The notes: generated by a model not told the origin, from the letters alone. DNA of 64,000 nt from Minisyncoccota bacterium (GCA_030583765.1 CP129474.1:521348-585347); one strand, 5' to 3'. Counted from the stretch's first letter, positions 21,275 through 43,880 are shown. Made by a program: numbers and translations.

Positions 21275-21283
21275 GCAACACGT

Positions 21284-21331
21284 GACAGTAACAGAAACCC
21301 CTCTCATGCCGAGAGGGGTTTCTGTTACTGT
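21284..21331 (+). terminator. Long perfect hairpin after rpoC (terminator-like, weak U tract)
   Basis: GACAGTAACAGAAACCCCTCTC-ATGCC-GAGAGGGGTTTCTGTTACTGT. Confidence 0.4.
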
Positions 21332-21393
21332 GGGAAAACGTTGATAATTTGCCTTGCATTCTGCTGTTTTAGAACGGTATACTGAGGACACTC

Positions 21394-23607
21394 ATGGCTC
21401 GCCAAAGCAACGGGAAAAAGCGTGAAAAACCATCCGATGAGGGCGGGTCTTCGCTTTTCGATATATCGCAAGAAACGCGAAATAGCATCTGGGGCATTTT
21501 AAGCTTCATTACTGCTATCGTGGTCACCTTAAGCTTTTTGGGACGAGCGGGTTCCGCGGGTGAGCTCATTGATTCCGTTTCGCGACTCTTGTTCGGATGG
21601 GGATATATCCTTGTGCCCATTTCTTTTGCGCTTCTTGGCATTTCCTTCATTAAATCTCTCTCGCGACACATCGCCACGAGCGCTGTAGTGGGCACCATAA
21701 CGTTCGTACTCTCGACACTGGCGATCTTGCACATTCTTGGCGATGGAACCTTCGATGACCGCATTATACAGGGCGGATATTTAGGCGTGGTACTTGGATT
21801 CCCCCTCCTCTCTTCAGTCGGCTTTGTTGCGTCTCTTATTGTGCTGCTCTCGTTCTTGAGCATTTCCATCCTCCTCGCTCTCAACGTACCGTTGTCAGCA
21901 CTCTTCATGCGCGCTCCTGAAGAAGAGGCGGCGCCTCAGGAAGATGAGATTGTCATCCGTAACGCGCAAAAAGAATTAGCCCAAAAGCCCGCTCCAGCAC
22001 TTGCAGAAGTAAAACAAGCGGCGCCGCCAAAGGAAAAGGCTTCGAAAGTCGACGATGCTCCGGAAAAAGGTTTTGTTATTAAGAATTTGAAGCTTGGTAA
22101 ATGGAATCTTCCGCCGCTTAAACTCCTTTCGGAAGACCAAGACCAGGCATTGACGGGTGATATTCAAGCAAACGCAAACATTATTAAGCGCACGCTCGCG
22201 AATTTTGGCATTGAGGTAGAAATGGGCGAAGTGTCTATCGGGCCAACAGTTACCCAATTCACCATGCGCCCTGCGGTGGGCGTGCGCTTGTCGAAGATCT
22301 CGGCGCTCGGGCCAGATCTCGCCCTTGCGCTTGCCGCGCACCCCATTCGTATCGAGGCTCCTATTCCTGGAAAATCGCTCGTCGGCATCGAAGTTCCCAA
22401 CAAAAAGACAGCTATTGTTGGTCTCCGCAATCTCCTTGAGGCCGATGAGTATGCTCGTGGGAAAGCGTTCCTACCCCTTGCGATTGGACGTGATGTGGGT
22501 GGTCTTTCAGTCTATGGCAGTTTGGAGCGCATGCCACACCTGCTCGTTGCTGGTGCCACGGGCACGGGCAAATCAGTTATGGTGAATGGCATCCTCCTTT
22601 CGCTTTTGTATAAACACTCGCCAGAAACACTGAAACTCATTCTTGTTGATCCAAAGCGCGTTGAGCTGTCCATCTATAACGACATCCCACACCTCATTAC
22701 GCCAGTGATCACGGATACTAAGAAAGTGATGGGGGCGTTGAAGTGGGCGGTGAGTGAAATGGATCGCCGCTACGATCAGCTCTCAAAGGTTGGTTCGCGA
22801 GATCTCTTTTCATACAACACGAAGATGGTTGCAGAGGGAAAGGACATCATGCCGTTCATCGTCATTGTGATTGATGAAATGGCAGACCTCATGGCTTCAT
22901 TCGGGCGTGACGTTGAAGCGGCAATCGTGCGCCTTGCGCAGATGTCGCGCGCCGTCGGCATCCACCTCATTCTTTCAACGCAGCGTCCTTCCGTTGAAGT
23001 TATTACTGGGCTCATTAAGGCGAACATTACCTCGCGCATTGCGCTACAGGTGGCAAGCCAAATTGACTCGCGCACCATCATCGATATGGCGGGCGCAGAA
23101 AAACTGCTCGGCCGCGGCGACCTCCTCTTCATGTCGGGTGACGCGGCGAAGCTCCGTCGCGTACAGGCGCCGTTAGTTACTGAAAAAGAAGTGCACGATG
23201 TTGTGGCGTTCTTGCGTGAACAGGCAGAAGAGCTGAATCTTTCACAGAATGAGTCTCTGAGTTCTGAGCTTACCAACTCACTTGCAAACGGTGGTCCACA
23301 AGGACAGGGTGGCGACAACGGCTCTGATGAAGATGATCTCTACGACGAGGCAAAGCGCATCGTCATAGACTCAGGCAAAGCCTCAGCATCTTTGTTGCAG
23401 CGTCGTCTGCGCGTGGGATATGCGCGTGCTGCGCGCCTCCTGGACATCCTCGAAGATAAAGGCATCATCGGTCCAGGTGAGGGGGCAAAGCCGCGAGAGG
23501 TCTACGTGCAAGCAGATGGTGCGCCGAGTGCGCCTCCTATGGGGTATGCACCCGTGGCGACGGCAGTATCTGCTGACACGCTAGAAGCAGAGCGAGATGA
23601 GCAGTAA
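21394..23607 (+). CDS. ftsK: DNA translocase FtsK/SpoIIIE
   Basis: 737 aa with N-terminal TM helices, Walker A (GATGTGKSV) and a C-terminal gamma domain. Confidence 0.9.
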
Positions 23608-23639
23608 TGAATAATCCACTGCGCTTGAGGGAGCGTAGT

Positions 23640-24713
23640 ATGCGTATGGTAAAAAAAGATCACAAAAAGGAAGCAAAGCCCAACATGACGAGCAAAGATA
23701 ACCGCCATATTGATATTGCCGTCAAAGAAATTCAAGAAAAATACGGTGACGGCGCTATTATGAAATTGGGCGAAGCGCGAAAGGTTGATGTTGATGTTAT
23801 CCCTTCCGGATCTATTTCACTCGATCTTGCTCTTGGGGTTGGAGGCATGCCGCGCGGCCGTGTTATTGAAGTGTATGGTCCTGAAAGCTCGGGCAAAACA
23901 ACGCTCGCGCTCCATCTCGTGTCCGAAGTGCAAAAGCAGGGTGGTGTTGCTGCGTATGTTGACGCGGAACACGCACTTGATCCCGAATATGCGAAGCGTA
24001 TTGGGGTAAAAACGCAGGACTTGCTCATTTCTCAACCAGATCACGGTGAACAAGCACTCGAAATTGTGGAAACGCTGGTTCGCTCCGGCGCCGTTTCGTT
24101 GGTGGTCGTAGACTCTGTCGCAGCACTTACGCCTCGCGCAGAAATTGAAGGTGAGATGGACCAGCAGCATGTCGGCCTTCAAGCGCGCCTCATGAGCCAT
24201 GCGCTGCGCAAGCTCGCAGGTGTTGCAGCAAAAACAAACACCACCATTTTATTCATTAACCAGATTCGTCAGAAGATTGGAGTCATGTTTGGGAACCCAG
24301 AGACAACCACCGGCGGCTTAGCGCTAAAGTTCTATGCATCGGTGCGTGTTGAGATTCGTCGTTCAGCGCAAATTCAAAGCGGCGAGCGTATCATTGGAAA
24401 TCGTGTGAAGGTGAAGATTGTAAAGAATAAGGTAGCTGCACCATTCCGTACGTGTGAGTTCGACATCTTCTACAACGAAGGCATCTCTGCAGAGTCTGAT
24501 TTGATTAACACGGGGGTACTCTATGGGGTGGTCGGCAAGGCGGGTAGCTGGTATACGCGTGGCGCAGACAAGCTCGGACAAGGCATGGAAGGTGCGCGCG
24601 CATTCTTGAAAGAGAATCCAAAAATCCGAAAGGAAATCTTCGATGCAATTAAAAAAGCTGCTGCCCTCGGTGAGGCACCAGCGAAACAAGCGCCCCTTGC
24701 ATCCGAAGAGTAG
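23640..24713 (+). CDS. recA: Recombinase RecA
   Basis: Walker [10 protein letters not shown] and L1/L2 loops. The start may instead be 23607, where TAATG overlaps the ftsK stop. Confidence 0.9.
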
Positions 24714-24716
24714 CGC

Positions 24717-25619
24717 TTATACTTTTGCTTCCGAATAGATCTCATCAAGCCACGGATAGCCTGATGAGACTTCACGTTGCATAAAATTAATCTCTTCTTG
24801 AGGAAGGCTAAGTGAGTCAAGGAGTGCAAAAAATCCTTCGCGTAGCTGCTCGGGCGTCGTGGGTACTGTTTGCGTCCACAACATTTCTGCAAGACGCCAG
24901 AAGCGTAGCATGGCTCCTTCGCGCGTTGCGCATACCGCCATAAGGTTTTCTTCTGGCAGGCTGTCTAATTCGGAGCGATACGTGAGCCATGAGCCGGCGG
25001 GCCCTATTTCTTTAGGGCAAAAGAGGTCGACAAAATAGAGCGTCCCATCAGTGTCTGGGACAACGTTTGCGAGCTTTAAATCAATGCCATGAGGGAGAGC
25101 GGTTACCTCTCGTCCGGAGATTGTTTTTCGATGGAGAGCGCCACGTGGATAGTGCGCGAGCTGGGCGAATGTTTGCCGTACAATGCTCCATCGAAGGAAA
25201 TTCGGTTGCTCTGGGTTGGTAAATATTTTTTCGCCATCAGCGCGTCCGATGCGTTGCTCGTATGAAAATATCTGCCCCTCATTTCCTTGCTGGAGTGTTT
25301 TTGTGTAATACGTATGTGGTATATTCCATCCAAAGCGCACTAGTTCTCTGCGATATGGCTCGAGGCGGGATTCTAAGTGCCGCGCTACATTAAAAGGTAA
25401 GCCTTTTCCGGCTCCCATTCGTTTAAATAACACTTGTTGTGGAGTGCCGTGCTCTCGGTACTCTAGAATAGAAACTCGAGATTGGCGACCTTGGCTGATA
25501 CCATCGGGAGGAAGTACTGAAAAAATGATATGTGGTTCATCAGCGCGAAGAATGTGCAATTCTGACGGAGTTGGTTCAAAGAGCTTGGCGTGGTGGGCGA
25601 GTACATCTTTCTTTTCCAT
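24717..25619 (-). CDS. Hypothetical protein, possible kinase-like (APH/ChoK-like) fold
   Basis: 300 aa. The HGIDLKLANVV...FVDLF segment resembles the catalytic and DFG-like loops of aminoglycoside/choline kinase-like phosphotransferases. This is weak. Confidence 0.4.
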   Translation of the reverse strand: MEKKDVLAHHAKLFEPTPSELHILRADEPHIIFSVLPPDGISQGRQSRVSILEYREHGTPQQVLFKRMGAGKGLPFNVARHLESRLEPYRRELVRFGWNIPHTYYTKTLQQGNEGQIFSYEQRIGRADGEKIFTNPEQPNFLRWSIVRQTFAQLAHYPRGALHRKTISGREVTALPHGIDLKLANVVPDTDGTLYFVDLFCPKEIGPAGSWLTYRSELDSLPEENLMAVCATREGAMLRFWRLAEMLWTQTVPTTPEQLREGFFALLDSLSLPQEEINFMQREVSSGYPWLDEIYSEAKV

Positions 25620-25700
25620 TACGATCAGTATACTAAAGCGTTATATAAAGCACAAAACGCCCCACATGGGGCGTTTTGTGTGCACTTGGGGGAAGAGGCC

Positions 25701-25913
25701 TTACTTCTGAACTGTCTGGTTGCGCGTGTAGGGCATAAGGGCCATGAAGCGTGCGAGCTTAATCGCCTGTGCGATACGGCGCTGGTGTATCTTGCAGAGC
25801 TTGTTGCGGCGTGAAGAGCCGATTTTAAACTCTGACGTTGTGTAGGCGCGGAGCGCCTTCACATCTTTATAGTTAATAGTTGGGGTTGCGTTTTTGCAGT
25901 GTGTGCAGTCCAT
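25701..25913 (-). CDS. rpsR: 30S ribosomal protein S18
   Basis: 70 aa with ...YKDVKALRAYTTSEFKI...RRIAQAIKLARFMALMPY. It lies in rpsF-ssb-rpsR order. Confidence 0.85.
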   Translation of the reverse strand: MDCTHCKNATPTINYKDVKALRAYTTSEFKIGSSRRNKLCKIHQRRIAQAIKLARFMALMPYTRNQTVQK

Positions 25914-25918
25914 AGTCG

Positions 25919-26422
25919 TTAGAATGGTAAATCTTCTGGTTTAATCTTTACATCTTCTTCTTCGATACCTTGGTGTGGCAACTCGCTTTCGTCAATGATT
26001 GGGATCTCTGGTTCCATGGCCGGCGTATCGCTTATTGCTGCTGCCGGTGCTCGTGATGGAGACGGTGCCCCCATCGGTTCACCTCCTGCGGAACGTGGGC
26101 CAAGTTGGAGATTCTCTGCGATGATTTCTGTGGCGTATCGCTTTACGTTATCTTGAGTGCCAGTCCATGAGCGAGTCTGAATGCGTCCTTCGATGAGCGC
26201 GAGAGATCCGCGGCGGAGATATTGGCTCGCGATTTCTCCGAGTCGTCCCCATGCAATGACTGTGTGAAATTCGGTGGCTTCGCGCTTTTGGTTTGTCTGC
26301 TTGTCATACCAGACGCGATTTGTCGCCATGCGAATAGTGGCCACATTTTGTCCTCCGGGAGTTGCGCGGACTTCGGGATCTTGGGTAAGCCGTCCGATCA
26401 AATAGACCTTATTCAGGTTCAT
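25919..26422 (-). CDS. ssb: Single-stranded DNA-binding protein
   Basis: OB-fold N-terminus (VYLIGRLTQDPEVR...), a G/P-rich linker and an acidic C-terminal tip ...EDLPF. Confidence 0.9.
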   Translation of the reverse strand: MNLNKVYLIGRLTQDPEVRATPGGQNVATIRMATNRVWYDKQTNQKREATEFHTVIAWGRLGEIASQYLRRGSLALIEGRIQTRSWTGTQDNVKRYATEIIAENLQLGPRSAGGEPMGAPSPSRAPAAAISDTPAMEPEIPIIDESELPHQGIEEEDVKIKPEDLPF

Positions 26423-26426
26423 AGCA

Positions 26427-26828
26427 TTACGCGACGTCGTTCATTGCGCTGTCCAGCTGCGCATCCATATCTGGCTGTGCGGCGCGGGGCGTGCGAGAAC
26501 GGGCGCGGGATTGTTCCTTTCCTGCGGACTCATCAAGCGCAAGCACGATGTGGCGCAAAACCTCTTTGTGGAGGCGGAGCGTTTCATCAATGAGCGCGAG
26601 CTGATCAGTATCTTCCAGCGTAAAGTGGCACCAGCCAAAAAAGCTAGAGCGTTGATGCTGGATAGGATAGGACAGGCGCGTTGCCTCGGGTGCTTTTGAC
26701 TCTACAATCGTACCTCCGTGGGAGGTAACGACCTGCTCAATACTTGCGTGGAGAGCGGGGATTTCTTCAGGAGCCTTGGTACCGTCTAGGTGGTACGCCA
26801 ACTCGTAGCGGCGATTCATGTCAGTCAT
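26427..26828 (-). CDS. rpsF: 30S ribosomal protein S6
   Basis: The MNRRYELAYHLDG... core matches S6. Start choice is ambiguous (26819, 26828 or 26885). Confidence 0.75.
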   Translation of the reverse strand: MTDMNRRYELAYHLDGTKAPEEIPALHASIEQVVTSHGGTIVESKAPEATRLSYPIQHQRSSFFGWCHFTLEDTDQLALIDETLRLHKEVLRHIVLALDESAGKEQSRARSRTPRAAQPDMDAQLDSAMNDVA

Positions 26829-26954
26829 ATCAATACTTTTGGGTTTCCGCACGCCCGAGAGGCGCAGATGTGGGCCTCTCGTCATGCAGTTATTGCATTA
26901 CCAGTGCCTAGATTACCAAGGAAATATGGGCATGTCAACGTTGTTGAGGGTATA

Positions 26955-26983
26955 TTGACTATATCGTATTTATTTTGTACTAT
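26955..26983 (+). promoter_or_regulatory. Cassette 3 promoter: TTGACT-17bp-TACTAT
   Basis: -35 at 26955-60 and -10 at 26978-83. RBS AGGAGGTGGCA is at 26993-27003 and the GTG start is at 27004. The native rpsF promoter is divergent just upstream. Confidence 0.55.
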
Positions 26984-27003
26984 ATGCGTCCAAGGAGGTG
27001 GCA

Positions 27004-27315
27004 GTGAATCAGAAAAAGCGAGCGACCGCGTCGCTAGCGGAGCTCGTTGCCGAAGTATCAGGGTGGCGGTTTGTGGTGGGGATGGCGGCCGTCATCGGGA
27101 GCCTCTTCATCTTCGTCTGTATGTTCCGAGCGGGCGTTGCGTGGGAACAAGGGCGTCTCGTTGCCGCAGTTGCTCTTGCGGCAGCTTCACTGGTTGCCGT
27201 CATCCTGTTTCTCGTGATCCTCACCATCGCTACGCGCAACTTGCGGGGCGACGTGCGGGAGTTTGCGAGACGCATGGGTGCTGGCATGGGCGATGACGCT
27301 GGGCTTAAGATCTAG
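27004..27315 (+). CDS. Small 2-TM membrane protein (cassette 3, gene a)
   Basis: 103 aa with two hydrophobic helices (VVGMAAVIGSLFIFV..., LVAAVALAAASLVAVILFLVIL). It is GC-rich and starts at a GTG placed by the RBS. Confidence 0.55.
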   Translation: MNQKKRATASLAELVAEVSGWRFVVGMAAVIGSLFIFVCMFRAGVAWEQGRLVAAVALAAASLVAVILFLVILTIATRNLRGDVREFARRMGAGMGDDAGLKI

Positions 27316-27330
27316 TGGGGGGGGTGAATC

Positions 27331-27936
27331 GTGAAGGTTCTCGTCGTTGCCGGGTACGGGGTGACGCCCGTACGAAACTACGCCATGGAGACAGAGCGCT
27401 ATCTGCTCCGTGCCGCAGAGTTGCTCAGGGAGGCATACGAGGGCGGCGATCCGTTCTCCAATCTCATCCTGTGCGGCGGCATGACCCAGCAGAAGACATC
27501 GCCACATGTCACAGAGGCGTACGCGATGCACGAACGTCTTCGCACGTTGACCATGTGGACTGATGGGAAGCTCGTACCCTCCTTCTGGGACGCTGTGCTG
27601 GTCTCGCACGAAGAGCGTTCATTCACTTCGCTGGAGAACGTACGAAACGCGAGTGAGCGCATTTATCAGCTGTGGGAGCAATTCGATGAGGAGCTCCACA
27701 TCACCGTGCTGTGCGAAGGCATGCGCCTCCTGAAGTGGCAGATCTTGTGTCGCCACTTCATGCCGAAGACGACCACGCCCATCCAGTACGAGATCGTCAA
27801 CTGGGAGCTGATGTCACCCCACAAGGAGTTGATGGCGACCATCTGGGACGCGTGTTCGGTCTCGATTCCCATTATCGGGCCAGCGATGGCGTGGTGGTGG
27901 GGATGGCGTCGCCGTCGGCGCGCCAAGCACATCTAG
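27331..27936 (+). CDS. DUF218 (YdcF/SanA/ElyC)-like protein with W/R-rich C-terminal tail (cassette 3, gene b)
   Basis: 201 aa. VLVVAGYG...R...LILCGGMTQQKTSPHVTEAYAMHERL resembles the DUF218 GG/SEA core. The tail reads AMAWWWGWRRRRRAKHI. Start is GTG. Confidence 0.55.
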   Translation: MKVLVVAGYGVTPVRNYAMETERYLLRAAELLREAYEGGDPFSNLILCGGMTQQKTSPHVTEAYAMHERLRTLTMWTDGKLVPSFWDAVLVSHEERSFTSLENVRNASERIYQLWEQFDEELHITVLCEGMRLLKWQILCRHFMPKTTTPIQYEIVNWELMSPHKELMATIWDACSVSIPIIGPAMAWWWGWRRRRRAKHI

Positions 27937-27945
27937 CCCCTACCG

Positions 27946-27985
27946 CCGGTCGCACACGTTGTGCGGTCGGCGGGCTTTTATTTTC
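27946..27985 (+). terminator. Intrinsic terminator of cassette 3
   Basis: CCGCCGGTCGCACACGTTGTGCGGTCGGCGG hairpin followed by GCTTTTATTTT. The ychF stop codon (complement of 27978-80) lies inside the T tract. Confidence 0.6.
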
Positions 27986-29060
27986 CGATCAAAATCTCTA
28001 CCACGTCTCCATCCTGAATGATGTAATCTCGCCCTACTGTTTTTACGAGACCTTTAGCGCGCGCAGGGCCATAACCACCAACCTCAAGGAGTTGTTGCGC
28101 AGGGATGACTTCAGCGCGAATAAAAAGGCGTTCAAAGTCGGTGTGAATGGCGCGCGATGCAACGGGGATAGGGTCACCTTCATGTGCGGTCCACGCGCGG
28201 CTTTCCGTTTCTCCCGTTGTGAGAAAGGTGAGGAGCCCAAGGCGGCGATAGCCCAGGGTGATCAGTTCATCAAGGCCGCTCTGCTCTTTGCCCACAGAGG
28301 CGAGGAGCTCTTTTTTATCCTCTGCAGACATCGTAGAGAGCGCGAGCTCCATAGCGTTGCACATCACCACGAATGGTGCGCCGTGAAGCGATTCACGTAG
28401 ATCGCTACTGGGTTGCCAGCCTTCAGTGAGCTGTTGTTCGGACACATTCAATACATATAAAAAGGGTTTTGCGGAAAGGAGGTTCAATTCGCGTGCCAGC
28501 GCCTTTTCGTCATCAGAAAGATCTGCGCCAGAAAGCACGGTCCCCGCATTATTGAGAGCGATGAGGTGTTCCAGTAAAGGAAGCTGTGCGGCGGCTTTTT
28601 TATCCGCCCGCCCTTCCTTTTGTGTTTTTTCAAGACGCTTAGCGAGCGTCTCCGCATCTGCCATAACAAGCTCTGTATTGATGATCGCAATGTCATCGAT
28701 CGGGTCAATGCGGCTGTGCACATGCAGTACGTTGTCATCATGGAACGCGCGCACAACGTGCACAATGGCATCTACTTCACGAATATTCGCAAGAAATTTA
28801 TTTCCCAACCCTTCGCCTTGGCTTGCGCCCTTCACGAGGCCGGCGATGTCGGTGAACTGCACCGTGGCATAGATAGAGCGTGCGGAGTGGGAGAGCTGGG
28901 TGAGCGCATCAACGCGAGGATCGGGGACTTCCACAACCCCTACGTTTGGTTCAATAGTGGTAAATGGGTAGTTTTGAATATCGACGTGCTTATTCGTCAC
29001 CGCCTGAAACAGCGTTGATTTACCGACATTAGGAAGCCCTACAATTCCGAGTGAAAGCAT
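27978..29060 (-). CDS. ychF: Ribosome-binding ATPase YchF
   Basis: 360 aa with G1 GLPNVGKST, a TGS-like C-terminus and the YchF signature FTTIEPN. Confidence 0.9.
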   Translation of the reverse strand: MLSLGIVGLPNVGKSTLFQAVTNKHVDIQNYPFTTIEPNVGVVEVPDPRVDALTQLSHSARSIYATVQFTDIAGLVKGASQGEGLGNKFLANIREVDAIVHVVRAFHDDNVLHVHSRIDPIDDIAIINTELVMADAETLAKRLEKTQKEGRADKKAAAQLPLLEHLIALNNAGTVLSGADLSDDEKALARELNLLSAKPFLYVLNVSEQQLTEGWQPSSDLRESLHGAPFVVMCNAMELALSTMSAEDKKELLASVGKEQSGLDELITLGYRRLGLLTFLTTGETESRAWTAHEGDPIPVASRAIHTDFERLFIRAEVIPAQQLLEVGGYGPARAKGLVKTVGRDYIIQDGDVVEILIGK

Positions 29061-29106
29061 TCGAGAATCCTAGCAAAAAAGCCCTTTGTGGGCCAGATGG
29101 CGCATA

Positions 29107-29135
29107 TTGACTTTATCGCTTTAAACTGGTATAAT
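29107..29135 (+). promoter_or_regulatory. Cassette 4 promoter: TTGACT-17bp-TGGTATAAT (extended -10) plus about 100-nt structured leader
   Basis: -35 at 29107-12 and -10 at 29130-35. The leader has hairpins CCATCCTCTAGGAGGGGATGG and TCGGCTAACAGCCGA before RBS GGAGAGAAGCA and ATG 29242. Confidence 0.55.
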
Positions 29136-29241
29136 TATAGAGTACAGTGTAGTACCTTTACATGCAGAACTGCCGCATTTCGCGGCCCATCCTCTAGGAG
29201 GGGATGGAAGAATCTCGGCTAACAGCCGAAGGAGAGAAGCA

Positions 29242-29835
29242 ATGAAGTATGACGAGATGACGTGGGGCACGATGGAGGCCGTGGTCAACAAGCTTGGCGG
29301 CATGGATGGCGTTCAGCGCTTCCTGCGCGGCGCGCTCAAGGTCGTCGAGGCGGAGGCCAATGCCGCCTTCTCGACGTTCCAGAAGATCACGCTCAGCGTG
29401 TACGACAACGTCGCGACGCTTCGCAAGGCGATCGCGGACAGCGGCAACAACATCAGCGACTACGGGGAAGACCTGCTCGCCAAGATGTCGCTGGTGAAGG
29501 AGCCCGTCGAGCTCGAGCTGGTGTGCGTGTCGGTCAAGGATCTGGGCCTGAAGTCCGGAGCCACGATCAAGCAGATCTACGATCGCGCTCGCAAGCTTGG
29601 CTTGGACCTCTGCCCGGCCCAGGTCGGACCCGAGCTCCGCCTGGCCTACCAGGATCAGCCCATCGGCGAGTGGCTGCTGGTGGCGATGGAGCAGATCACG
29701 GATCGCAACGGTCACCCGAGCGTGTTCATCGTCGGGTGTGACGTCCACGGCGTCCGCTGGTTGGACGGCGATTACGCCTACCCGAGCAACACCTGGAGCG
29801 GCCTCAGCCGTTGGGTGTTCGTCCGTCGCGCGTAA
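29242..29835 (+). CDS. Hypothetical protein (cassette 4)
   Basis: 197 aa beginning MKYDEMTWGTMEAVVNKLGG... It is GC-rich with G/C3 codons. No motif was recognised. Confidence 0.55.
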   Translation: MKYDEMTWGTMEAVVNKLGGMDGVQRFLRGALKVVEAEANAAFSTFQKITLSVYDNVATLRKAIADSGNNISDYGEDLLAKMSLVKEPVELELVCVSVKDLGLKSGATIKQIYDRARKLGLDLCPAQVGPELRLAYQDQPIGEWLLVAMEQITDRNGHPSVFIVGCDVHGVRWLDGDYAYPSNTWSGLSRWVFVRRA

Positions 29836-29886
29836 GCCCTTAGCGCTTGGCAGCTTAGTTCTCTGAACTTGGAAGCTGAGCCCTGC

Positions 29887-29920
29887 GCCCGCACAGAAAT
29901 GTGCGGGCTCTTTATTTTTA
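29887..29920 (+). terminator. Intrinsic terminator of cassette 4
   Basis: GCCCGCAC-AGAAAT-GTGCGGGC followed by TCTTTATTTTTA. The terminal TTA is the stop codon (complement) of the convergent nucleotidyltransferase gene. Confidence 0.6.
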
Positions 29921-30610
29921 TAATTTGGTGTCCGCTATTTTCTCCACGGCTCGCAGATCTTCTGGAGTGTTTACACTGCGCCATGATGGCATAGCCACCA
30001 CGTGCACGGGGTTATGCGCGCTCCATACCAAGAGGGTGCGCGGGAGACTCAACTCACCAGAGGGAAGATGGTACGGTTCTTCTGAAAAAATACTTGGCTC
30101 TAACATATATGCTCCCGTTGCAATGCAGTGCGTGCCCTCCTGTGGTGTCGGGCCAAACGCGGTAAGGAGGCTGTGTGCGTCCTGTGCGATATTGAGGAAC
30201 GGTGGCACTGGGCGTGGCGATTCCCATACACCTATAGCTCGAGTGTGTTGGGAGAGGGTGAGTATATCATGTGATGCAAACATGTCGTCAGACTGGAGGA
30301 CAAGGAATGGTTGCGTAGACGTTGCGCATAGCGATTGCGCACTCCAGAGCGCCCCAGCCGTTCCGGGGAGTGCATCTTCTTGCATGATAAAACGGATTGG
30401 TGCGTGGGGGTGCTCCCGCATGACGTGCTCTCTGATTTGCTCGTGGCGATATTTTACTACAATACCAATCTGGTTAACGGCAGGTGGGAGTGCGCGCAGC
30501 AGATGATCCAAGAGCGTTGTGCCACGAACTGTAATGAGTGGCTTTGGTATGGTGTCGGTGAGCGGCGCAAGGCGTGTGCCGCGTCCAGCGGCGAGTATGA
30601 TGGCGAGCAT
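29918..30610 (-). CDS. Sugar-phosphate nucleotidyltransferase-like protein (NTP_transferase/MobA-like fold)
   Basis: The real start MLAIILAAGRGTRLAPLTDTIPKPL... (G-x-G-x-R nucleotide-binding loop) lies inside a longer ORF. Composition is native-like. Confidence 0.65.
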   Translation of the reverse strand: MLAIILAAGRGTRLAPLTDTIPKPLITVRGTTLLDHLLRALPPAVNQIGIVVKYRHEQIREHVMREHPHAPIRFIMQEDALPGTAGALWSAQSLCATSTQPFLVLQSDDMFASHDILTLSQHTRAIGVWESPRPVPPFLNIAQDAHSLLTAFGPTPQEGTHCIATGAYMLEPSIFSEEPYHLPSGELSLPRTLLVWSAHNPVHVVAMPSWRSVNTPEDLRAVEKIADTKL

Positions 30611-30620
30611 ATTCGTAGTG

Positions 30621-30654
30621 TATAAAAAGTAAGGGGGCTTGTACAAAGCCCCCT
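30621..30654 (-). terminator. Intrinsic terminator of cassette 5 (minus strand)
   Basis: On the minus strand, GGGGGCTTTGTACAAGCCCCC followed by TTACTTTTTATA lies downstream of the NUDIX stop. Confidence 0.55.
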
Positions 30655-30662
30655 CTCGAGCG

Positions 30663-31181
30663 CTAGAGCTCGTACGGCGGTGCGGCAGGCGGCTCGGCGG
30701 GGAAAACGCTCTGCGGGTACGGCCTTTGCGGCCGGATGTAGGGCTCCCAGATGAGCGTTCTCTGCGCGCGATAGACGTGTTCCCACACGCCTTCGAGTTC
30801 CGGTGCCGTGAACCAGCGCACATCGCTGATCTCGTCCGTGGGAAGCTGGGCATGCACCGGAGATGTTTCGGAGAACTGTTGACGGGGGAACTCCCACATG
30901 AGGACGATCCCCGGCGATTTGGCGAGCGTGAAGGCGTGTGGGCACCACATGGAGGGGGCGGTCAACCAGTATCCAGTCTCCTCCCTCAATTCGCGTGCCA
31001 GTGCATCCCAGAGCCGCTCTCCGATCATGGGCGCTCCGCCAGGGAGTGACCACTGTCGAGAAGGGTATCCCGGCACCTCGTAGTTGTGCTGAACGAGGAG
31101 GATTTTCGGCTCCTTCCCTGGTGTGCGGTTGACGATGTGGGCGAAGACGCCCACCTGCGTAATGTCTCGTTTATCTCTCAC
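30663..31181 (-). CDS. NUDIX hydrolase (cassette 5, minus strand)
   Basis: 172 aa with Nudix box GGAPMIGERLWDALARELREETG. It is GC-rich with G/C3 codons. The GTG start follows RBS AAGGAGGT. Confidence 0.8.
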   Translation of the reverse strand: MRDKRDITQVGVFAHIVNRTPGKEPKILLVQHNYEVPGYPSRQWSLPGGAPMIGERLWDALARELREETGYWLTAPSMWCPHAFTLAKSPGIVLMWEFPRQQFSETSPVHAQLPTDEISDVRWFTAPELEGVWEHVYRAQRTLIWEPYIRPQRPYPQSVFPAEPPAAPPYEL

Positions 31182-31204
31182 TCAAACCTCCTTGTGAGTT
31201 TCTG

Positions 31205-31233
31205 ATAATACAATTACTTGCGCTAACTGTCAA
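31205..31233 (-). promoter_or_regulatory. Cassette 5 promoter (minus strand): TTGACA-17bp-TATTAT
   Basis: The reverse complement of 31228-33 is TTGACA, overlapping the trpS stop. The reverse complement of 31205-10 is TATTAT. RBS AAGGAGGT is the reverse complement of 31186-93. Confidence 0.55.
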
Positions 31234-32249
31234 AGCCCCATGGCGGTGCGCACTTTACGCATCGTTTCTTCTGCAATGACTCGGGCTTTTTCTTCGGATG
31301 CTTCCAATATAGCCGTTACCTGTGCGGGATCTGCGGTGAGTTCGGCGTGCTTTTGCTGAAATGGCGCAAGTGCCGTGATGATCGCCTCTGCGAGATCGTG
31401 TTTGAAATCCGCGTAGCCACTGGACGCATAGCGAGCTTCGAGCTCTGGGATCGGTGTGCCGCTCACAACACTGAAAATAGTGAGTAAGTTAGCGATGGCT
31501 GGCCGTTCGGTGGGTTGGTAGGTAATGCCGGTGCCTGAATCAGTGACGGCACGCTTTATCTTTGCGCGAATGGTGTCTGGTGCGTCAGTGAGGGCAATGC
31601 CATCGTCGCCCGTCTTTGACATCTTTTTCGTAGGATCTTGCAGAGACATGATGCGAGCGCCCTGCTCTTCTGCCATGTGCGCTTTTACGGTGGTAAATGT
31701 TTCGCCACCTGCCCGGCCAGGGAATAAATGGTTGAACTTACGTGCTATTTCATTGGTGACATCAATGTGCACGAGCTGATCTTCGCCCACTGGAACGAGG
31801 GTTGTGTTGTAAAGCAGAATGTCTGCCGCCATGAGTACGGGATAGGAAAGAATGGCGAGGTTGTTGCCATAGCTTCCTGCGCGAGGAGAAAGTGATGCTT
31901 CGATCTGCTCACCCTTCTCTCGGTAGTTGGGGAGGCGGTCTAGCCAACTGATGGGCGTAATGGAAGATAAGAGCCACATGAGCTCGGCATGCTGGGGAAC
32001 GCGAGACTGGCGGATGATAAGCGCACGCGAAGGATCTACGCCCGCGGCAATGTAGTTAATGGCCGCATCGCGCACGCGCTCTGGCATGTCGGCTGGTTCG
32101 TAGGGCGTAGTGATGCCGTGAAGGTCTACGACGGCGTACACTGCTTGTTCTGCGTCGCGCTGAAGGGCAACCCACTGTTTGAGTGCGCCCACATAGTTGC
32201 CAAGATGGAGCTTGCCACTGGGGCGCATGCCAGAAAAAACTCGTTGCAT
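31230..32249 (-). CDS. trpS: Tryptophan--tRNA ligase
   Basis: 339 aa with a HIGH-type region (..GKLHLGNYVGAL..) and KMSKT. Confidence 0.9.
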   Translation of the reverse strand: MQRVFSGMRPSGKLHLGNYVGALKQWVALQRDAEQAVYAVVDLHGITTPYEPADMPERVRDAAINYIAAGVDPSRALIIRQSRVPQHAELMWLLSSITPISWLDRLPNYREKGEQIEASLSPRAGSYGNNLAILSYPVLMAADILLYNTTLVPVGEDQLVHIDVTNEIARKFNHLFPGRAGGETFTTVKAHMAEEQGARIMSLQDPTKKMSKTGDDGIALTDAPDTIRAKIKRAVTDSGTGITYQPTERPAIANLLTIFSVVSGTPIPELEARYASSGYADFKHDLAEAIITALAPFQQKHAELTADPAQVTAILEASEEKARVIAEETMRKVRTAMGL

Positions 32250-32298
32250 AGTGCTTCAAGAATAGAGGAATTAAGGTCTTTTCGCAATACGGAGAATA

Positions 32299-32327
32299 TT
32301 GACCGTTGTGATATTTATTGGTATAAC
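32299..32327 (+). promoter_or_regulatory. Cassette 6 promoter: TTGACC-17bp-TATAAC
   Basis: -35 at 32299-304 and -10 at 32322-27. RBS AAGGAGG is at 32336-42 and the ATG at 32349. Confidence 0.55.
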
Positions 32328-32348
32328 TATGCACGAAGGAGGCGCACC

Positions 32349-32786
32349 ATGAGATCTTGTTTGACATTGGCACACGAGCCGTACGAGCCCTTGCGCATCG
32401 CGCGCGACGAGCTCGTCGTCGTTTCGGAAACGGATCCGGGGAGCATCCCCGCGTTCGTGGATCGGTTTCGGGACGTTTCTGCTCCGATTCCGATCGAGTG
32501 CGTGGACCACCTTCGCAAGCTGGTGACAGCGATCATCCAGAAGATGGAGTTCGCGTCTGCGAACGGGTGGCCGTCACGTAGGCCGATGTACTTCCATGTC
32601 TGTCGCCTGAACGACCTGTCAGCGAAGGAGTGCGAGCTCTGGGAGGACGCCGCGCAGCTCATCTACAAGGAGTTGCACGCTTGCGGCTGGACGCAGGCCA
32701 TCGTGGACGAGGTGGAGTGGCAGAACGTGGAGGACGAGGGGACGGAGCGTTACGAGCGCTCGCTCGTCATCAACCTGTTCATGTAG
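32349..32786 (+). CDS. Hypothetical protein (cassette 6)
   Basis: 146 aa beginning MRSCLTLAHEPYEPLRIARDELVVV... It is GC-rich. The RBS-placed ATG is in frame inside the 31989 ORF. No motif was recognised. Confidence 0.55.
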   Translation: MRSCLTLAHEPYEPLRIARDELVVVSETDPGSIPAFVDRFRDVSAPIPIECVDHLRKLVTAIIQKMEFASANGWPSRRPMYFHVCRLNDLSAKECELWEDAAQLIYKELHACGWTQAIVDEVEWQNVEDEGTERYERSLVINLFM

Positions 32787-32791
32787 CAAAC

Positions 32792-32830
32792 GCCCGAGGG
32801 GGTATCCCTCGGGCGTGCTTTCTTTTTATA
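32792..32830 (+). terminator. Intrinsic terminator of cassette 6
   Basis: CGCCCGAGGGGGTATCCCTCGGGCG followed by TGCTTTCTTTTTATA. The RNase J stop codon (complement of 32826-28) is in the T tract. Confidence 0.6.
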
Positions 32831-34907
32831 CTTCGATAATGACTGGCAAGACCATGGGCCGCCGTTCTGTTTTTTGGAACAAGAATCGTCCCACATCGTC
32901 ACGAATATTATCTTTCAGGTACTGCAAGTTCATGGGGCGCTGACGCTCGGATTCGATGATGGTGCGCACCTTTTTACGTACTTGCGAGAGAAGTTCACGT
33001 TGTTCTTTGAGGTACACGAAGCCGCGGGAGATAATATCTGGGCTACGGTTGATTTGTCCGGTGCGAGCATCAATGAGCGTGATGATGACAAACATGCCAT
33101 CTTCTGCGAGCACTTGGCGGTCGCGCAACACAACATTGCCGATGTCGCCGATACCCAAGCCGTCTACCATGACGTAGTGTGCGGGGTGAGTCTTTTTATC
33201 AAACCACCACTGATCTGGGGCGTAGTGCACAATTTGTCCATTATCCGCGATAATGACGTTGCCGTCGGGGATGCCGAGCGACTTACCTAATTCACCGAGG
33301 GTGACCATCATGGAGTATTGACCATGGTGTGGCATGAGGAACTTTGGTCGCACGAGCTGGATGATCTTTTTGAGATCTTCTTGTTTTGCGTGACCACCTG
33401 CATGGATGTCCATCATCTGGTTGTGGTACACCTTTACGCCAGCGCGGTAGAGCATGTCTTTGAGGTACTGAATGGCGCGCTCGTTACCCGGAATGACCGA
33501 CGAGGAGAACACCACGCTATCATGAGGCTTCAGTTGAATGAAGCGGTGCTCTTGGTTCACGATGCGCATGAGCGATGCAGATTCTTGACCTTGTGCGCCA
33601 GTGGCGATCACCGTGATGAGCTCGCGAGGGTAGTCATCAATTTGTTCCATCGAGATTTGCGTGCCCTTTCCGATCTTGATATAGCCCATTTCTTTCGCAA
33701 TATCGACGTTGGATTTCAAGCTGTAGCCGTCGAATGCTACTTTGCGGCCATAGTGTTCAGAGAGGGTGATGAGCTGCTGGATGCGATTGATCATCGAGGA
33801 GAACGTTCCTACAAGGATCATACCCTTTGCCTCCCTGAAGATAATGTCCATGTTCTCATAGATGGTGCTTTCCGAGACGGAGTGCCCCTCTTCTTCTGCA
33901 TCTGTTGAGTCGCACATCATCATGAGGACGCCCTTGTCGCCGAAGCGCTGGAGCTTGTCATAGTCTGCAGGCTCGCCGTTCAATGGCGCTGGATCGAATT
34001 TGAAGTCTGCAGTGTGGATGACATTTCCTACTGGCGTCGTGATGAACAATCCCAAGTCGTCGGGAATGTTGTGGTTCATGTTGAAGAATTCAACTGTGAA
34101 ATATTCCCCAACTTTTTCAACGTCGCCGTTCTTCATGACGTTGATGTTCAGCGGCGCGAGGTGTGGGAACTCAAGGTGCCGCTTCATAAGGATTTTTTCC
34201 GTCAGCTGTGCAGTATAAATTTCTGGGTTTCCGAGCTTTTCTTGGAGATAGGGCACTGCACCAATGTGATCCATGTGTCCGTGCGTAAGAATAAGCGCGC
34301 GGATATTTTCCTTTTTCGTTTCCAAATACGCCGTGTTAGGGATGATGAAGTCGATGCCCGGCATGTTTTCTTGCGGGAACATGATGCCTGCATCGATGAC
34401 GATGATCTCATCCTTGTATTCCATGCAGTACATGTTTTTCCCAACCTCGCCCAAGCCTCCGAGCGCGTATACTTTCAACGTATTGTCGGCGTTTGGATCT
34501 GTGCCTTCGGGTGCGCCAACCTTGCCCGCATGAATCTGGGTGGGTGGAAGGCGTCGCTCGCTGGCGAGCTTTGGACGACGTGCACCGTAGCGTGCGCGGC
34601 TGCGACTCGCGGCGCGGCGCGGTTTGTCATATGAAGTTTCTGCAGGTTGGGCGCTGGTAGTTTCGCCTGATGTCGGCGCGCTTGGCGCATCCGTTCGTTG
34701 TTGTGGGCGATGCTGAAAGCCGCCACCAGAGCGGGGGCGATGGAAACGCCGTCGGCCAAATCCGCCGCGTCGTTGCTGTTGAGGCACGTCTCCTGATGCT
34801 GGTGCATCGGAAGAAGGTGCGCGTGTATCTGAATCGGTCACACAGAAAGAAGAGCGTAGGGCGCAACGTGCATGCAACAGCGTTGCCGTGCACGAGCGCA
34901 CGCTCAT
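32826..34907 (-). CDS. rnj: Ribonuclease J (metallo-beta-lactamase/beta-CASP) with RG-rich N-terminal extension
   Basis: HGHMDHIGAVPYL motif and beta-CASP/RMMBL regions. The first about 130 aa form a low-complexity R/G/S-rich region. The true start is uncertain. Confidence 0.85.
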   Translation of the reverse strand: MSVRSCTATLLHARCALRSSFCVTDSDTRAPSSDAPASGDVPQQQRRGGFGRRRFHRPRSGGGFQHRPQQRTDAPSAPTSGETTSAQPAETSYDKPRRAASRSRARYGARRPKLASERRLPPTQIHAGKVGAPEGTDPNADNTLKVYALGGLGEVGKNMYCMEYKDEIIVIDAGIMFPQENMPGIDFIIPNTAYLETKKENIRALILTHGHMDHIGAVPYLQEKLGNPEIYTAQLTEKILMKRHLEFPHLAPLNINVMKNGDVEKVGEYFTVEFFNMNHNIPDDLGLFITTPVGNVIHTADFKFDPAPLNGEPADYDKLQRFGDKGVLMMMCDSTDAEEEGHSVSESTIYENMDIIFREAKGMILVGTFSSMINRIQQLITLSEHYGRKVAFDGYSLKSNVDIAKEMGYIKIGKGTQISMEQIDDYPRELITVIATGAQGQESASLMRIVNQEHRFIQLKPHDSVVFSSSVIPGNERAIQYLKDMLYRAGVKVYHNQMMDIHAGGHAKQEDLKKIIQLVRPKFLMPHHGQYSMMVTLGELGKSLGIPDGNVIIADNGQIVHYAPDQWWFDKKTHPAHYVMVDGLGIGDIGNVVLRDRQVLAEDGMFVIITLIDARTGQINRSPDIISRGFVYLKEQRELLSQVRKKVRTIIESERQRPMNLQYLKDNIRDDVGRFLFQKTERRPMVLPVIIEV

Positions 34908-34958
34908 TCATGAAATTCGTGTCGAGATAGAAGCGCAACTGCGCCTCATACAAATCTC

Positions 34959-35045
34959 TGGTGCCCTCGACAGGACTTGAACCTGTACGATCGTGAGATC
35001 ACTAGCTCCTGAAGCTAGCGCGTCTGCCAATTCCGCCACGAGGGC
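34959..35045 (-). tRNA. tRNA-Leu (anticodon CAG)
   Basis: The reverse complement is GCCCTCGTGGCGGAATTGGCAGACGCGCTAGCTTCAGGAGCTAG...CAGGTTCAAGTCCTGTCGAGGGCACCA. It has a long variable arm. The loop TTCAGGA gives anticodon CAG. CCA is encoded. Confidence 0.85.
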
Positions 35046-35175
35046 AAAGAACGAGAGAAGAACGGTTTGACCAGTCTAGCTGATGTCCGCCGTTTCTGCC
35101 AATGGGATAACCCCAAAGCACAAGAGTACACGAATAGTACCTAGTATTATAGCAAAACTACGGGAAAAAGCAAGA

Positions 35176-36954
35176 CTATTTCAAGCTGCGCGTTGTGTGA
35201 ATATACCACTCACGAATGCCAGCGAATCGTTCAGCTGGGGTGCCGATAACGTTCAGTGAGGCTCCTAAAATGCGACTATCCATGGCATAGGTATACTTCG
35301 CATTGTATAGGAAGATAGCCGGCAAATCCTGCACTACAATTTGTTGGAAATCGTGATAGAGGCTCGCGCGCTCAAGAGGATTAAGCGTGGTGCGGGCTCG
35401 CTCCAAAATGGCGTCCGCAGTCTGGTTGTCATACAGAGCAATATTTGCTCCCGGTTCGCGCTTCTGTGAAGAGTGCCACACGGGGAATGGATCTGGATCG
35501 AGGCTCATCACTACGCCAAACAGGAGCATGTCATACGCTCGATCCTTTATAGCCTGCTGGAGCTGCACAAACGATAACGAAGAGACCGTGAGCTCAATAC
35601 CAGCGTTGCGCCACTGTGTTGCGATGCGCTGTGCTACCTCAGAAAGCTCTGGTTGTGTGCTTGTGGTAAGAGTGAGCGCAAGGCGTGTGCCGCGCTTGGT
35701 AAATATACCGTCGTTGCCTTGAGCCCAGCCGTCAGCAACCAGCACTGCCTTTGCCTTTTCAGGATCAAATGTTGGGCTGGCGACGTCATCGGCGATTGAG
35801 AGCACGCTTTCTACGAACGGTCGATCTACAGGAGATCCCTTGCCATGGAGCACGTCACGGATGAGCGCATCGCGATCGGTTGCGTGCGAGAGAGCAAGTC
35901 GCACATTTCTGTCCGCGATGAGCGCGTTGCGGCTCTGGTTGAAGAATACGGCGAAGTAGCGAGGGATGTTGGCATCCGTATATGCTATACGGCGAGGTGT
36001 GCCAATCTCTTTTTGAGCTTTTGGAGAAATGCCCGCGATGCTATCGATGTGGCGTCGCTTGAAGGCATCGATGAGCGCATCCTCACTTTGGAAAAATTTC
36101 AGCGTGATACGATCTATAAAAGGACGGCCTGCATGAAAATCTTCAAAGGCGCGAACGGTATACGAAGTGATGCGTCCCACGCTATCTTTTTCAAGCTTCT
36201 CAAAGCGATACGGCCCAGCGCCAACGGGACGCGTATTGAGATCGTGTAATGCAAATGAAGCGGGGCGTATATCCTGCCATATGTGCTTTGGCAAAATACC
36301 AACGGTCAGCGTATTAGGGAACTGCGCGTATGCAGTCTTAAGTTTAAACATCACCGCAAATTCATTCACCTTCTCTACGGTGACGCCTTGCCATGCGATG
36401 CGGAGCGGGCTTCCAAAATCAGGATTTTGGATGGTTTCAATGGTAAAAATGACGTCATCTGCGGTAACGGGCTTGCCGTCATGCCAGAGAGTATCTTCTT
36501 TCAAGTACACGGTATAACTCAAGCCATCGCTGGAAATTTCCGGGAATGTTTTTGCGAGGTCAGGGACGAGGTTGCCTTGGGCGTCGTAGGACAGTAGCCC
36601 AGCGAACAAGAGCGTTTCTAAATCGCGATCTACCTCATTCGCATATGAGAGCACGGGGTTGATGAATCGCGGGTCCCCAAGCACTCCTTCAGTAAAGGAG
36701 CCGCCCGTGTCTGGGGTAACGATGGTTGCAGAGCGCCACAGCGCGACGGGAATGAGGGCAATGCTCGCGATCGCTATGAGTGCCAGAGCGGCGATGCCAT
36801 AGCGCTCACGAAAGGAGAGCACCTTGGGGAGGAGGCGCATTCTTTGTCGCCAGAATAAACGAGCCGTTACCGGATCCTCCTCGCGTTCCGCGGGAGCCCC
36901 AGGAGCAGGCGACGCAGAAAAGAAATCGTCGAGCTGGTGTTCGTTATGTGGCAT
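35176..36954 (-). CDS. ABC transporter substrate-binding protein, family 5 (Opp/Dpp-like)
   Basis: 592 aa with an N-terminal TM/signal anchor and an SBP_bac_5-like sequence. Confidence 0.75.
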   Translation of the reverse strand: MPHNEHQLDDFFSASPAPGAPAEREEDPVTARLFWRQRMRLLPKVLSFRERYGIAALALIAIASIALIPVALWRSATIVTPDTGGSFTEGVLGDPRFINPVLSYANEVDRDLETLLFAGLLSYDAQGNLVPDLAKTFPEISSDGLSYTVYLKEDTLWHDGKPVTADDVIFTIETIQNPDFGSPLRIAWQGVTVEKVNEFAVMFKLKTAYAQFPNTLTVGILPKHIWQDIRPASFALHDLNTRPVGAGPYRFEKLEKDSVGRITSYTVRAFEDFHAGRPFIDRITLKFFQSEDALIDAFKRRHIDSIAGISPKAQKEIGTPRRIAYTDANIPRYFAVFFNQSRNALIADRNVRLALSHATDRDALIRDVLHGKGSPVDRPFVESVLSIADDVASPTFDPEKAKAVLVADGWAQGNDGIFTKRGTRLALTLTTSTQPELSEVAQRIATQWRNAGIELTVSSLSFVQLQQAIKDRAYDMLLFGVVMSLDPDPFPVWHSSQKREPGANIALYDNQTADAILERARTTLNPLERASLYHDFQQIVVQDLPAIFLYNAKYTYAMDSRILGASLNVIGTPAERFAGIREWYIHTTRSLK

Positions 36955-43562: not shown

Positions 43563-43587
43563 AGATTGGCATTTTCACTGGTAGAAT
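43559..43587 (+). promoter_or_regulatory. Cassette 7 promoter: TTGAAG-17bp-TAGAAT
   Basis: The -35 overlaps the htpX stop (43560-62). RBS AGGAGG is at 43608-13 and ATG at 43620. Confidence 0.5.
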
Positions 43588-43619
43588 CCGCGTAGCTCTT
43601 GTGGGGCAGGAGGCTTGCC

Positions 43620-43880
43620 ATGATGGGACGCAGATCGCTCCTGCGGATTGCATATCATCTCGTGCATCCGCATGTGAGTGAAGAGGAAATGCCCCACGAA
43701 GAGTGGGACATGGCAGTAGCCATCGCGCAAGATCGGCGTGATCGTCGGTGGCCGCTCAACGAACGCACTGACGCGCTCTGGGCTCCGGTGCGGGATGCGA
43801 TTCTCAACGTTCCGCGTCCCGACCACGTTTCCGAAATGACGTACCGCCTCTTCCATGAAGTGGTTCGTGACATCGAGTAG
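43620..43880 (+). CDS. Hypothetical small protein (cassette 7)
   Basis: 86 aa beginning MMGRRSLLRIAYHLVHPHVSEEEMPHEEWDM... It is GC-rich. No motif was recognised. Confidence 0.45.
   Translation: MMGRRSLLRIAYHLVHPHVSEEEMPHEEWDMAVAIAQDRRDRRWPLNERTDALWAPVRDAILNVPRPDHVSEMTYRLFHEVVRDIE

Follow-up and report, generated by a model that had tools for sequence, protein, structure and literature searches.

Predicted one-way terminators of accessory transcription units overlap host stop codons in a compact Paceibacterota chromosome

Phage morons carry a promoter and a terminator of their own, differ in composition from their neighbours, are inserted into a conserved, operon-like array between two of its genes and are missing from related genomes (PMC3594210). 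For the target genes of diversity-generating retroelements (DGRs), a hairpin consensus has been described that comprises a GC-rich stem of 7-10 bp and a 4-nt GRNA loop and that is positioned 4-34 bp after the variable repeat (VR) in phage examples (PMC3240598), and group IIC introns have been discussed as mobile DNA that targets terminator hairpins and thus spares coding sequence (discussion in PMC3240598). Here, we analyse a stretch of 64,000 nucleotides from a Minisyncoccota bacterium (CP129474.1:521348-585347; hereafter the window), in which small accessory transcription units, called cassettes in a first-pass annotation, are lodged between housekeeping genes. Three of them, units A, B and D, are oriented against the host gene string, and their terminators face the 3' end of the upstream host gene, sharing bases with its stop codon. 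We consider it probable that this geometry is explained by one-way terminators on antisense units, by deletions that compacted the junctions under purifying selection, and by unit turnover through homologous recombination.

The region comprises the following features, given in coordinates of the whole 64,000-nt stretch. The identities of host open reading frames (ORFs) were settled by Pfam matches, relatives are labelled L001-L090, and GC3 denotes the GC content of third codon positions.

26427-26885, minus strand: rpsF, host gene
26910-26938, minus strand: promoter of rpsF-ssb-rpsR, TTGACA-17-TAATCT; faces outward, divergent from the unit A promoter; conserved in L004 and L084
26955-26983, plus strand: unit A promoter, TTGACT-17-TACTAT; 75% identical to the unit B promoter over 28 nt
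26998-27315, plus strand: unit A gene 1, 105 amino acids (aa); no Pfam match; GC3 0.68; a membrane-spanning look, judged by eye from hydrophobic stretches
27331-27936, plus strand: unit A gene 2, 201 aa; weak, sub-threshold DUF218 match; TAG stop; GC3 0.79
27943-27984, plus strand: unit A predicted intrinsic terminator; hairpin 27943-27973 with a 14-bp stem, then T-tract GCTTTTATTTT
27978-29060, minus strand: ychF, host GTPase; Pfam YchF-GTPase_C and MMR_HSR1
29107-29135, plus strand: unit B promoter, TTGACT-17-TATAAT; 11/12 consensus positions
29242-29835, plus strand: unit B gene, 197 aa; DGR target with variable repeat 29695-29829
29887-29920, plus strand: unit B predicted terminator; hairpin 29887-29908 (9-bp GC-rich stem, GAAA loop), then T-tract TCTTTATTTTTA
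29918-30622, minus strand: NTP_transferase (nucleotidyltransferase), by Pfam; 80% aa identity in L084
30631-30655, minus strand: unit C predicted terminator; co-directional with the host string; conserved in L084
30663-31181, minus strand: unit C gene, NUDIX hydrolase by Pfam, 172 aa; GC3 0.75; TAG stop
31205-31233, minus strand: unit C promoter, TTGACA-17-TATTAT; the -35 box holds the trpS TGA
31230-32249, minus strand: trpS, host gene; Pfam tRNA-synt_1b
32299-32327, plus strand: unit D promoter, TTGACC-17-TATAAC; diverged homologous versions in L001, L084 and L087
32349-32786, plus strand: unit D gene, 145-aa ORFan; lineage-restricted; no Pfam match; hypervariable among strains
32790-32828, plus strand: unit D predicted terminator; hairpin 32790-32816, then T-tract GCTTTCTTTTTA
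32826-34907, minus strand: rnj, RNase J, host gene; Pfam RNase_J_b_CASP, RNase_J_C and Lactamase_B

The first-pass annotation had placed three convergent host stop codons inside the T-tracts of unit terminators, and the geometry is as it described. The TAA of ychF (27978-27980, tta on the plus strand) lies within its tract right after the hairpin, and the TAA codons of NTP_transferase (29918-29920) and rnj (32826-32828) form the ends of theirs. Part of the ychF tract is the reverse of the last Lys codon of ychF plus its TAA. The same annotation had seen two host stops within -35 boxes, and these are likewise present: the trpS TGA (31230-31232) lies within the TTGACA (31233-31228, minus strand) of the NUDIX promoter, an overlap also found in L084, and the htpX TGA (43560-43562) lies within the TTGAAG of a small unit at 43559-43880. 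Host ORFs are undamaged at the junctions, as every unit sits between intact ORFs. With stems of 9-14 bp, the three hairpins fold at -19.2 (unit B), -24.4 (unit A) and -25.7 (unit D) kcal/mol and reach z-scores of -4.2 to -5.0 against shuffled sequences, none of which folds as well. Their plus-strand 3' tails are U-rich (GCUUUUAUUUU, UCUUUAUUUUUA and GCUUUCUUUUUA), and each element thus resembles an intrinsic terminator in sequence, having a stable GC-rich hairpin with an immediate 3' U-tract. Read on the minus strand, the hairpins are followed by GGUAGGGGCU, GCGCAGGGCU or UUUGCUACAU, which are G/C-rich and hold no U-tract, a pattern that does not match a bidirectional terminator. Because the U-tract occurs in the unit direction only, and because empty sites in relatives have no hairpin, the terminators appear to be one-way and owned by the units. 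Among 52 host genes, an A-rich run after TAA was found in the three that converge on a unit and in one short case (TAA aagg); this near-confinement suggests that the T-tracts belong to the terminators and not to the general host context. The hairpin sequences of the units all differ from one another.

Comparison with relatives points to units that were inserted together with their terminators. Order-level relatives keep the backbone rnj>trpS ... ychF>rpsF>ssb>rpsR <recA. In the distant L007, L008 and L010, the corresponding junctions are empty, with rnj and trpS 0-54 bp apart, ychF and rpsF 7-14 bp apart and the hairpin absent, and in L090, whose ychF is 69% identical, NTP_transferase and ychF are separated by ~10 nt. 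Because these distant relatives have tight, hairpin-free junctions, units A, B and D appear to have entered once-tight junctions and to have brought their terminators along. The annotation had proposed to rebuild the pre-insertion junctions from relatives; doing so gave gaps of 0-54 bp, so that the units are inserted relative to the ancestral order. It had also named finding the same terminators in relatives devoid of cassettes as the sign of native elements, and no terminator was seen without a unit. The units are not newcomers: orthologous units are found in genomes that are just 78-84% identical, which marks them as old residents.

The origin of the overlap can be followed at the NTP_transferase junction, where unit B ends. 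L084 has, in order, the unit B promoter, a DGR target, the same GAAA-loop hairpin, a template repeat (TR), an Avd-like gene and a reverse transcriptase (RT) gene, and the stops of RT and NTP_transferase overlap as TTATAA. In the window, the hairpin T-tract is fused directly to TTATAA. Because the window thus joins this T-tract to the RT/NTP_transferase TTATAA of L084, the comparison shows the overlap to be the product of a deletion that removed the ~1.8-kb DGR module (TR, Avd, RT) lying between two T-rich stretches. L087 lacks NTP_transferase and NUDIX, and there the RT gene overlaps the stop of trpS in the sequence TTATAG. One interval has different contents in the close relatives, NTP_transferase plus NUDIX at 29918-31233 in the window versus TR-Avd-RT at 1935-3716 in L087, with both present in L084. 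Compared with L087, the window is a mosaic: identity is 91% to the left of 29884 and 97.8% to the right of 31234, with one break at the unit B hairpin and the other at the base that follows the trpS stop. The unit B promoter is identical in L004, L084 and L087, ahead of different DGR target ORFs, and the unit B hairpin follows the DGR target in L004, L005 and L084, next to a different downstream neighbour.

Several lines of evidence show that unit B is a DGR target gene with a C-type-lectin-like fold and a VR at its C-terminus. The TR of L087 differs from its own VR at 15 positions, all of which are TR adenines, and of the 21 mismatches between this TR, taken from the relative and not from the window, and the window VR (29695-29829), 19 are at TR adenines. 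L087 encodes a bAvd and an RVT_1 protein beside its DGR target, and RT, Avd and TR are present in L087, L084, L086 and L006. The confidently predicted structure of the unit B protein (pLDDT, the predicted local distance difference test, 94.9) matches C-type-lectin-like folds including the DGR protein TvpA, and the protein belongs to a large family of 4162 cluster representatives. With its 9-bp stem and its GAAA loop, the unit B hairpin fits the DGR target-hairpin consensus, at a distance of ~57 nt after the VR versus the published 4-34 bp. Tblastn searches of the 64-kb window with the RT and Avd of L087 returned nothing below E = 0.2, and the window holds no second VR copy that could represent a TR. 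Since the template repeat, Avd and reverse transcriptase are all missing from the window, unit B is an orphaned or trans-served DGR target.

The rnj junction exists with and without a spacer. L084 reads ...CTTCTTTTTATACTTtctcgtgagtttatgaatgcTTATACTTCGATAATG, with 30 nt between T-tract and stop; in the L001 allele, a 22-nt spacer separates an unrelated terminator from the stop; and both the window and L087 read ...CTTTCTTTTTATACTTCGATAATG, with no spacer. A deletion between two TTATACTT repeats would produce the state seen in the window, and, as the spacers of L084 and L001 are weakly alignable, the comparison suggests that the spacer is the older state. The unit D protein at this junction is 81% identical in L087, 60% in L084 and 33% in L001, and has 3 homologs in 5.8 billion proteins. 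L001 and the window differ by a single mismatch across 17978-32270 (14.3 kb) and diverge from 32271, 22 nt beyond the trpS start, where L001 carries another unit D allele (33% aa identity) with a different terminator. The rnj gene of L001 then shows 17 single-nucleotide differences in its last 230 bp, spaced in multiples of three, and their density decays over the next 3 kb. Relative to L001, window positions 32271-35671 thus look like an imported homologous-recombination tract anchored in core genes, at a hypervariable locus. An origin of the overlap by compaction is thereby shown for two of the three junctions. The claim that the cassettes landed precisely at gene ends survives in part: they did insert into junctions between genes, but the exact overlaps are probably secondary to insertion, as spacer lengths vary and the NTP_transferase overlap goes back to a deletion.

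At the third junction, ychF itself is 95-96% identical at the aa level in L004 and L005, and unit A diverges more rapidly, with identities of 53% for gene 1 in L004/L084 and, for gene 2, 74% in L004/L084 and 62% in L005. L090 has a gene at the same position, convergent on ychF, whose arginine-rich C-terminal tail looks alike by eye. The unit A terminator is conserved in L004, L084 and L005. The overlap of the ychF stop with a T-tract occurs in these three genomes and also in L090, where the hairpin is entirely different; it is old and has been maintained. L005 holds an extra promoter-ORF unit between unit A and ychF (ORF 3413-2838, minus strand), with a 50-bp copy of the unit A terminator on either side, the two copies being nearly identical (~3585-3535 and ~2825-2775, minus strand). 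A single crossover of a circular unit with the resident terminator, or a duplication, would yield such flanking copies. A homology search with the extra gene of L005 retrieved only itself.

The ychF leader carries a further element: at 29080-29094 on the minus strand, ~20 nt upstream of the start, a terminator-like hairpin is followed by the T-run GGCCCACAAAGGGCTTTTTTG, an arrangement that L004, L005 and L087 preserve. The element might act as an attenuator, or might block antisense transcription that runs through unit B. Downstream of unit B and of the leader hairpin, a search revealed no clear promoter for ychF.

Tight packing is not limited to the junctions with units. Where two host genes converge, the gap is 3 bp (between recA and its neighbour) or the ORFs share 4 bp (58694-58697), and co-directional gaps under 20 bp are common in the window. 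Of the nine host TGA stops, four fall within a TTGAC/TTGAA box that precedes a -10-like hexamer; two of the four are at host-host junctions (44739-44741 and 60647-60649), where the stops are inside TTGACG boxes and the hexamer would serve the next host gene. Because TGA stops at two host-host junctions show the same overlap, the placing of a stop within a promoter is not specific to accessory units. TAA, the codon found in the T-tracts, terminates 62% of host genes. In itself, the geometry of the junctions is ordinary compaction.

The comparisons show an ancient co-directional housekeeping string (rnj, trpS, ychF, rpsF-ssb-rpsR) into which self-contained accessory transcription units have intruded. 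For the way in which the units work and the junctions were shaped, we propose the following. The terminator of a unit would halt its transcription right at the host stop, limiting antisense RNA and polymerase collisions in essential genes, and a promoter that faces out of the unit at its opposite end would re-express the downstream host gene, a role that seems clear for rpsF and weaker for trpS. Spacer DNA would then be lost until removal of the next base would ruin the host stop or the U-tract, making the overlap an end point. As TAA reads TTA on the other strand, a T-tract absorbs it at no cost, and TTGACA accommodates TGA likewise. Unit content, finally, can be shown to change via homologous recombination anchored in the flanking core genes.

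Several observations weigh against this account. The ychF overlap has no known spacer-containing relative, and all three antisense units of the window show the stop overlap; at ychF, an insertion mechanism that lands next to stops could still have been at work. The duplicated terminator in L005 gives a hint that insertion or excision can involve terminators. At rnj, the direction of change rests on just two spacer-bearing lineages, whose spacers are weakly alignable. Termination and insulation by the hairpins are read from sequence, and the account leaves the GC3 and TAG signature of the units, described below, without a cause.

An alternative would be a dedicated mechanism (a recombinase, a retroelement or hairpin-directed recombination) that puts modules exactly at gene ends, with the overlap as an insertion signature. 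Each unit does sit exactly between intact ORFs, the extra unit of L005 lies between its two near-identical 50-bp terminator copies, DGR-related retroelements recognise terminator-like hairpins (PMC3240598), and relatives carry a DGR in this very region. Yet the spacer at a single junction, rnj, measures 0, 22 or 30 nt among relatives, the NTP_transferase overlap was made by deletion and not by insertion, and the one replacement that we observed, that of unit D, is a homologous-recombination tract. The units also share no border repeats or att-like motifs and have hairpins that all differ, the window is devoid of a group II intron, RT and Avd, viral scans with three unit proteins gave no relatives, and the extra gene of L005 occurs nowhere else. 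We therefore regard a site-selective mechanism as unlikely. A host ownership of the terminators, which would then be native and bidirectional elements merely used by the accessory genes, could draw on the minus-strand folding of the hairpins (-19 to -27 kcal/mol) and on the absence of any further hairpin behind the host stops. Here the sequence that follows the hairpins in the host direction speaks to the contrary, being GGUAGGGG, GCGCAGGG or UUUGCUAC with no U-tract, as do the hairpin-free junctions of empty-site relatives and the unit B hairpin, which travels with the DGR target while its downstream neighbour differs in L004, L005 and L084. On the missing host-direction U-tract and the hairpin-free empty sites, we reject native bidirectional terminators as very improbable.

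The textbook quality of the parts, with promoter matches at 11/12 positions, a strong Shine-Dalgarno sequence (AGGAGG) and clean terminators, and a unit composition sharply unlike that of the neighbours, could also suggest synthetic cassettes or mis-joined contigs. The provenance of the sequence speaks against both. The exact ychF protein, in the same gene order, occurs on contigs from three Logan runs, and a relative of 97.8% identity (L087) with an orthologous arrangement comes from a further Logan run. The exact NUDIX and unit D proteins are deposited under 'Candidatus Paceibacterota bacterium', and relatives of ~80% DNA identity with the orthologous arrangement come from the Hainich groundwater wells H51 and H41. 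The arrangement has thus been assembled independently from at least four sequencing runs and from Hainich groundwater, orthologous units have diverged to 53-81% aa identity across relatives, and native genes such as groES and rpsF use the same promoter type. Given environmental assemblies that are independent of one another, and orthologs that have diverged, the window is a natural chromosome of the Patescibacteria (Paceibacterota), extremely compact, and no construct; a synthetic origin is rejected, and engineering or chimerism has next to no probability. The conclusion of the first-pass annotation, that the junctions reflect site-selective or designed insertion, is not supported in view of the old residence of the units, their variable overlaps, their turnover by recombination and the equally tight overlaps between host genes.

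Deletional compaction around one-way terminators, our preferred account, concerns the junctions; the units themselves form a recognisable class. Eight were identified in the window (ORFs at 5750, 7735, 26998, 27331, 29242, 30663 on the minus strand, 32349 and 43621), with GC3 values of 0.68-0.94, all above the host maximum of 0.66 (host median 0.52). Seven of the eight use a TAG stop, compared to 11 of 52 host genes (21%; p = 5e-4). Units are made up of a near-consensus sigma-70 promoter, a strong Shine-Dalgarno sequence, a GC3-rich ORF and a strong, seemingly unidirectional intrinsic terminator. In the H51 lineage (L084), unit proteins are 53-74% identical at the aa level versus 80-96% for host proteins. 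Possible sources of the GC3/TAG signature include a foreign donor, biased gene conversion at recombining loci, or another origin. In Pfam scans, the unit proteins A1, B, D, E and F and the units of relatives had no match, A2 gave the weak sub-threshold hit to DUF218, and C is the NUDIX protein. The sole close homolog of the latter, 59% identical, is found in the H51 lineage, and a homology search for a high-GC donor placed the nearest outside matches at ~35% identity, with no donor to name. Viral-contig scans with F197, A2 and B197, a method that detects close relatives only, found no relatives. The whole window holds no direct repeats of 40 nt or more, and hence no TR and no repeated unit borders; short repeats in 26800-32900 are chance matches or reflect the likeness among promoters. 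Beyond that likeness, the unit ends have no repeat of at least 14 nt and no att-like motif in common (no search aimed at a recombinase or integrase was made). An Rfam scan of the whole window at gathering thresholds returned 23S rRNA, 5S rRNA and two tRNAs and no group II intron ribozyme.

Two of the GC3-rich promoter-ORF-terminator units lie at ~5690-6215 and ~7685-8390 and encode proteins of 133 aa and 197 aa with GC3 values of 0.77 and 0.94. They split the normally contiguous secY-adk-map array, one lying between secY and adk and the other between map and the 23S rRNA promoter, and the 197-aa protein has a histone-like tail rich in Lys and Ala. By eye, the TAG habit seems present in most of the unit genes that were read in relatives. 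Elsewhere in the window, a 300-aa gene without a Pfam family (24717-25619, minus strand) lies 3 bp from the recA stop; it is host-like in composition, present in L004 and L084 (95% aa identity) and absent from L005 and distant relatives. The 23S and 5S rRNA genes at 8718-11986 have no 16S gene upstream within the window, where map and an accessory unit are found instead. A 246-aa ORF at 49342-50082, with a GC content of 0.38, a GC3 of 0.29 and no Pfam match, is an outlier opposite in direction to the GC-rich units.

The locus shows how rapidly changing accessory genes are accommodated among strung-together essential genes in a minimal genome, namely by giving them their own promoter and a one-way terminator, followed by deletional trimming up to the stop codon. 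For annotators, it means that textbook promoter-gene-terminator units of odd composition are no evidence of engineering. For bacteria of the candidate phyla radiation, it describes a small hypervariable region between ychF and rnj that holds a retroelement-less DGR target and a strain-swapped ORFan, both of which could be markers of host or phage interaction.

Compared to known systems, the closest analogy for the units is the phage moron, though outside any phage. Like the morons of HK97/HK022-type phages, the units consist of one gene or a few and bring a promoter and a terminator of their own; they are odd in composition, are inserted between two genes of a conserved array and are lacking in relatives. 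In contrast to morons, they reside in a cellular chromosome among ychF, trpS, rnj, rpsF, secY and adk and not in a prophage, most of them are antisense to the array, and they are old, fast-diverging residents instead of recent additions. A long shot, and distinctly speculative, is that Patescibacteria possess a chromosomal counterpart of morons, GC3-rich and TAG-ended modules that come and go at tight junctions within essential operons through recombination at terminator hairpins and so form hypervariable, strain-specific loci; the 50-bp terminator duplication around the extra unit of L005 hints at this, and such recombination might be related to the hairpin recognition of DGRs and group IIC introns. 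With group IIC introns, the extra unit of L005 shares its start right after a terminator T-tract; however, neither an intron ribozyme nor an intron-encoded protein is present in the window, and the units carry terminators instead of being placed behind them. Integron cassettes resemble the units as small single-gene modules that each end in an imperfect palindrome, but the units have their own promoters, are scattered between core genes and not arrayed at attI, and their palindromes have none of the conserved boxes of attC-type sites (an integrase was not looked for). Unit B matches DGR loci of the Bordetella phage BPP-1 mtd and Treponema TvpA type in its C-terminal VR, adenine differences, C-type-lectin-like fold and the 9-bp GC-rich stem and GAAA loop of the hairpin downstream, and departs from them in having no TR, Avd or RT within 64 kb and in the greater distance of its hairpin from the VR (~57 nt, as against 4-34 bp in the phage examples); the active-looking DGR of L087 itself has a different hairpin with a 5-nt loop. 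At the level of the junction, finally, the arrangement is that of terminators between convergent genes of compact bacterial genomes, where a GC-rich hairpin fills the whole gap and its T-run overlaps the 3' end of the neighbour, with the difference from bidirectional terminators that those described here appear to be unidirectional, with no U-tract in the host direction.

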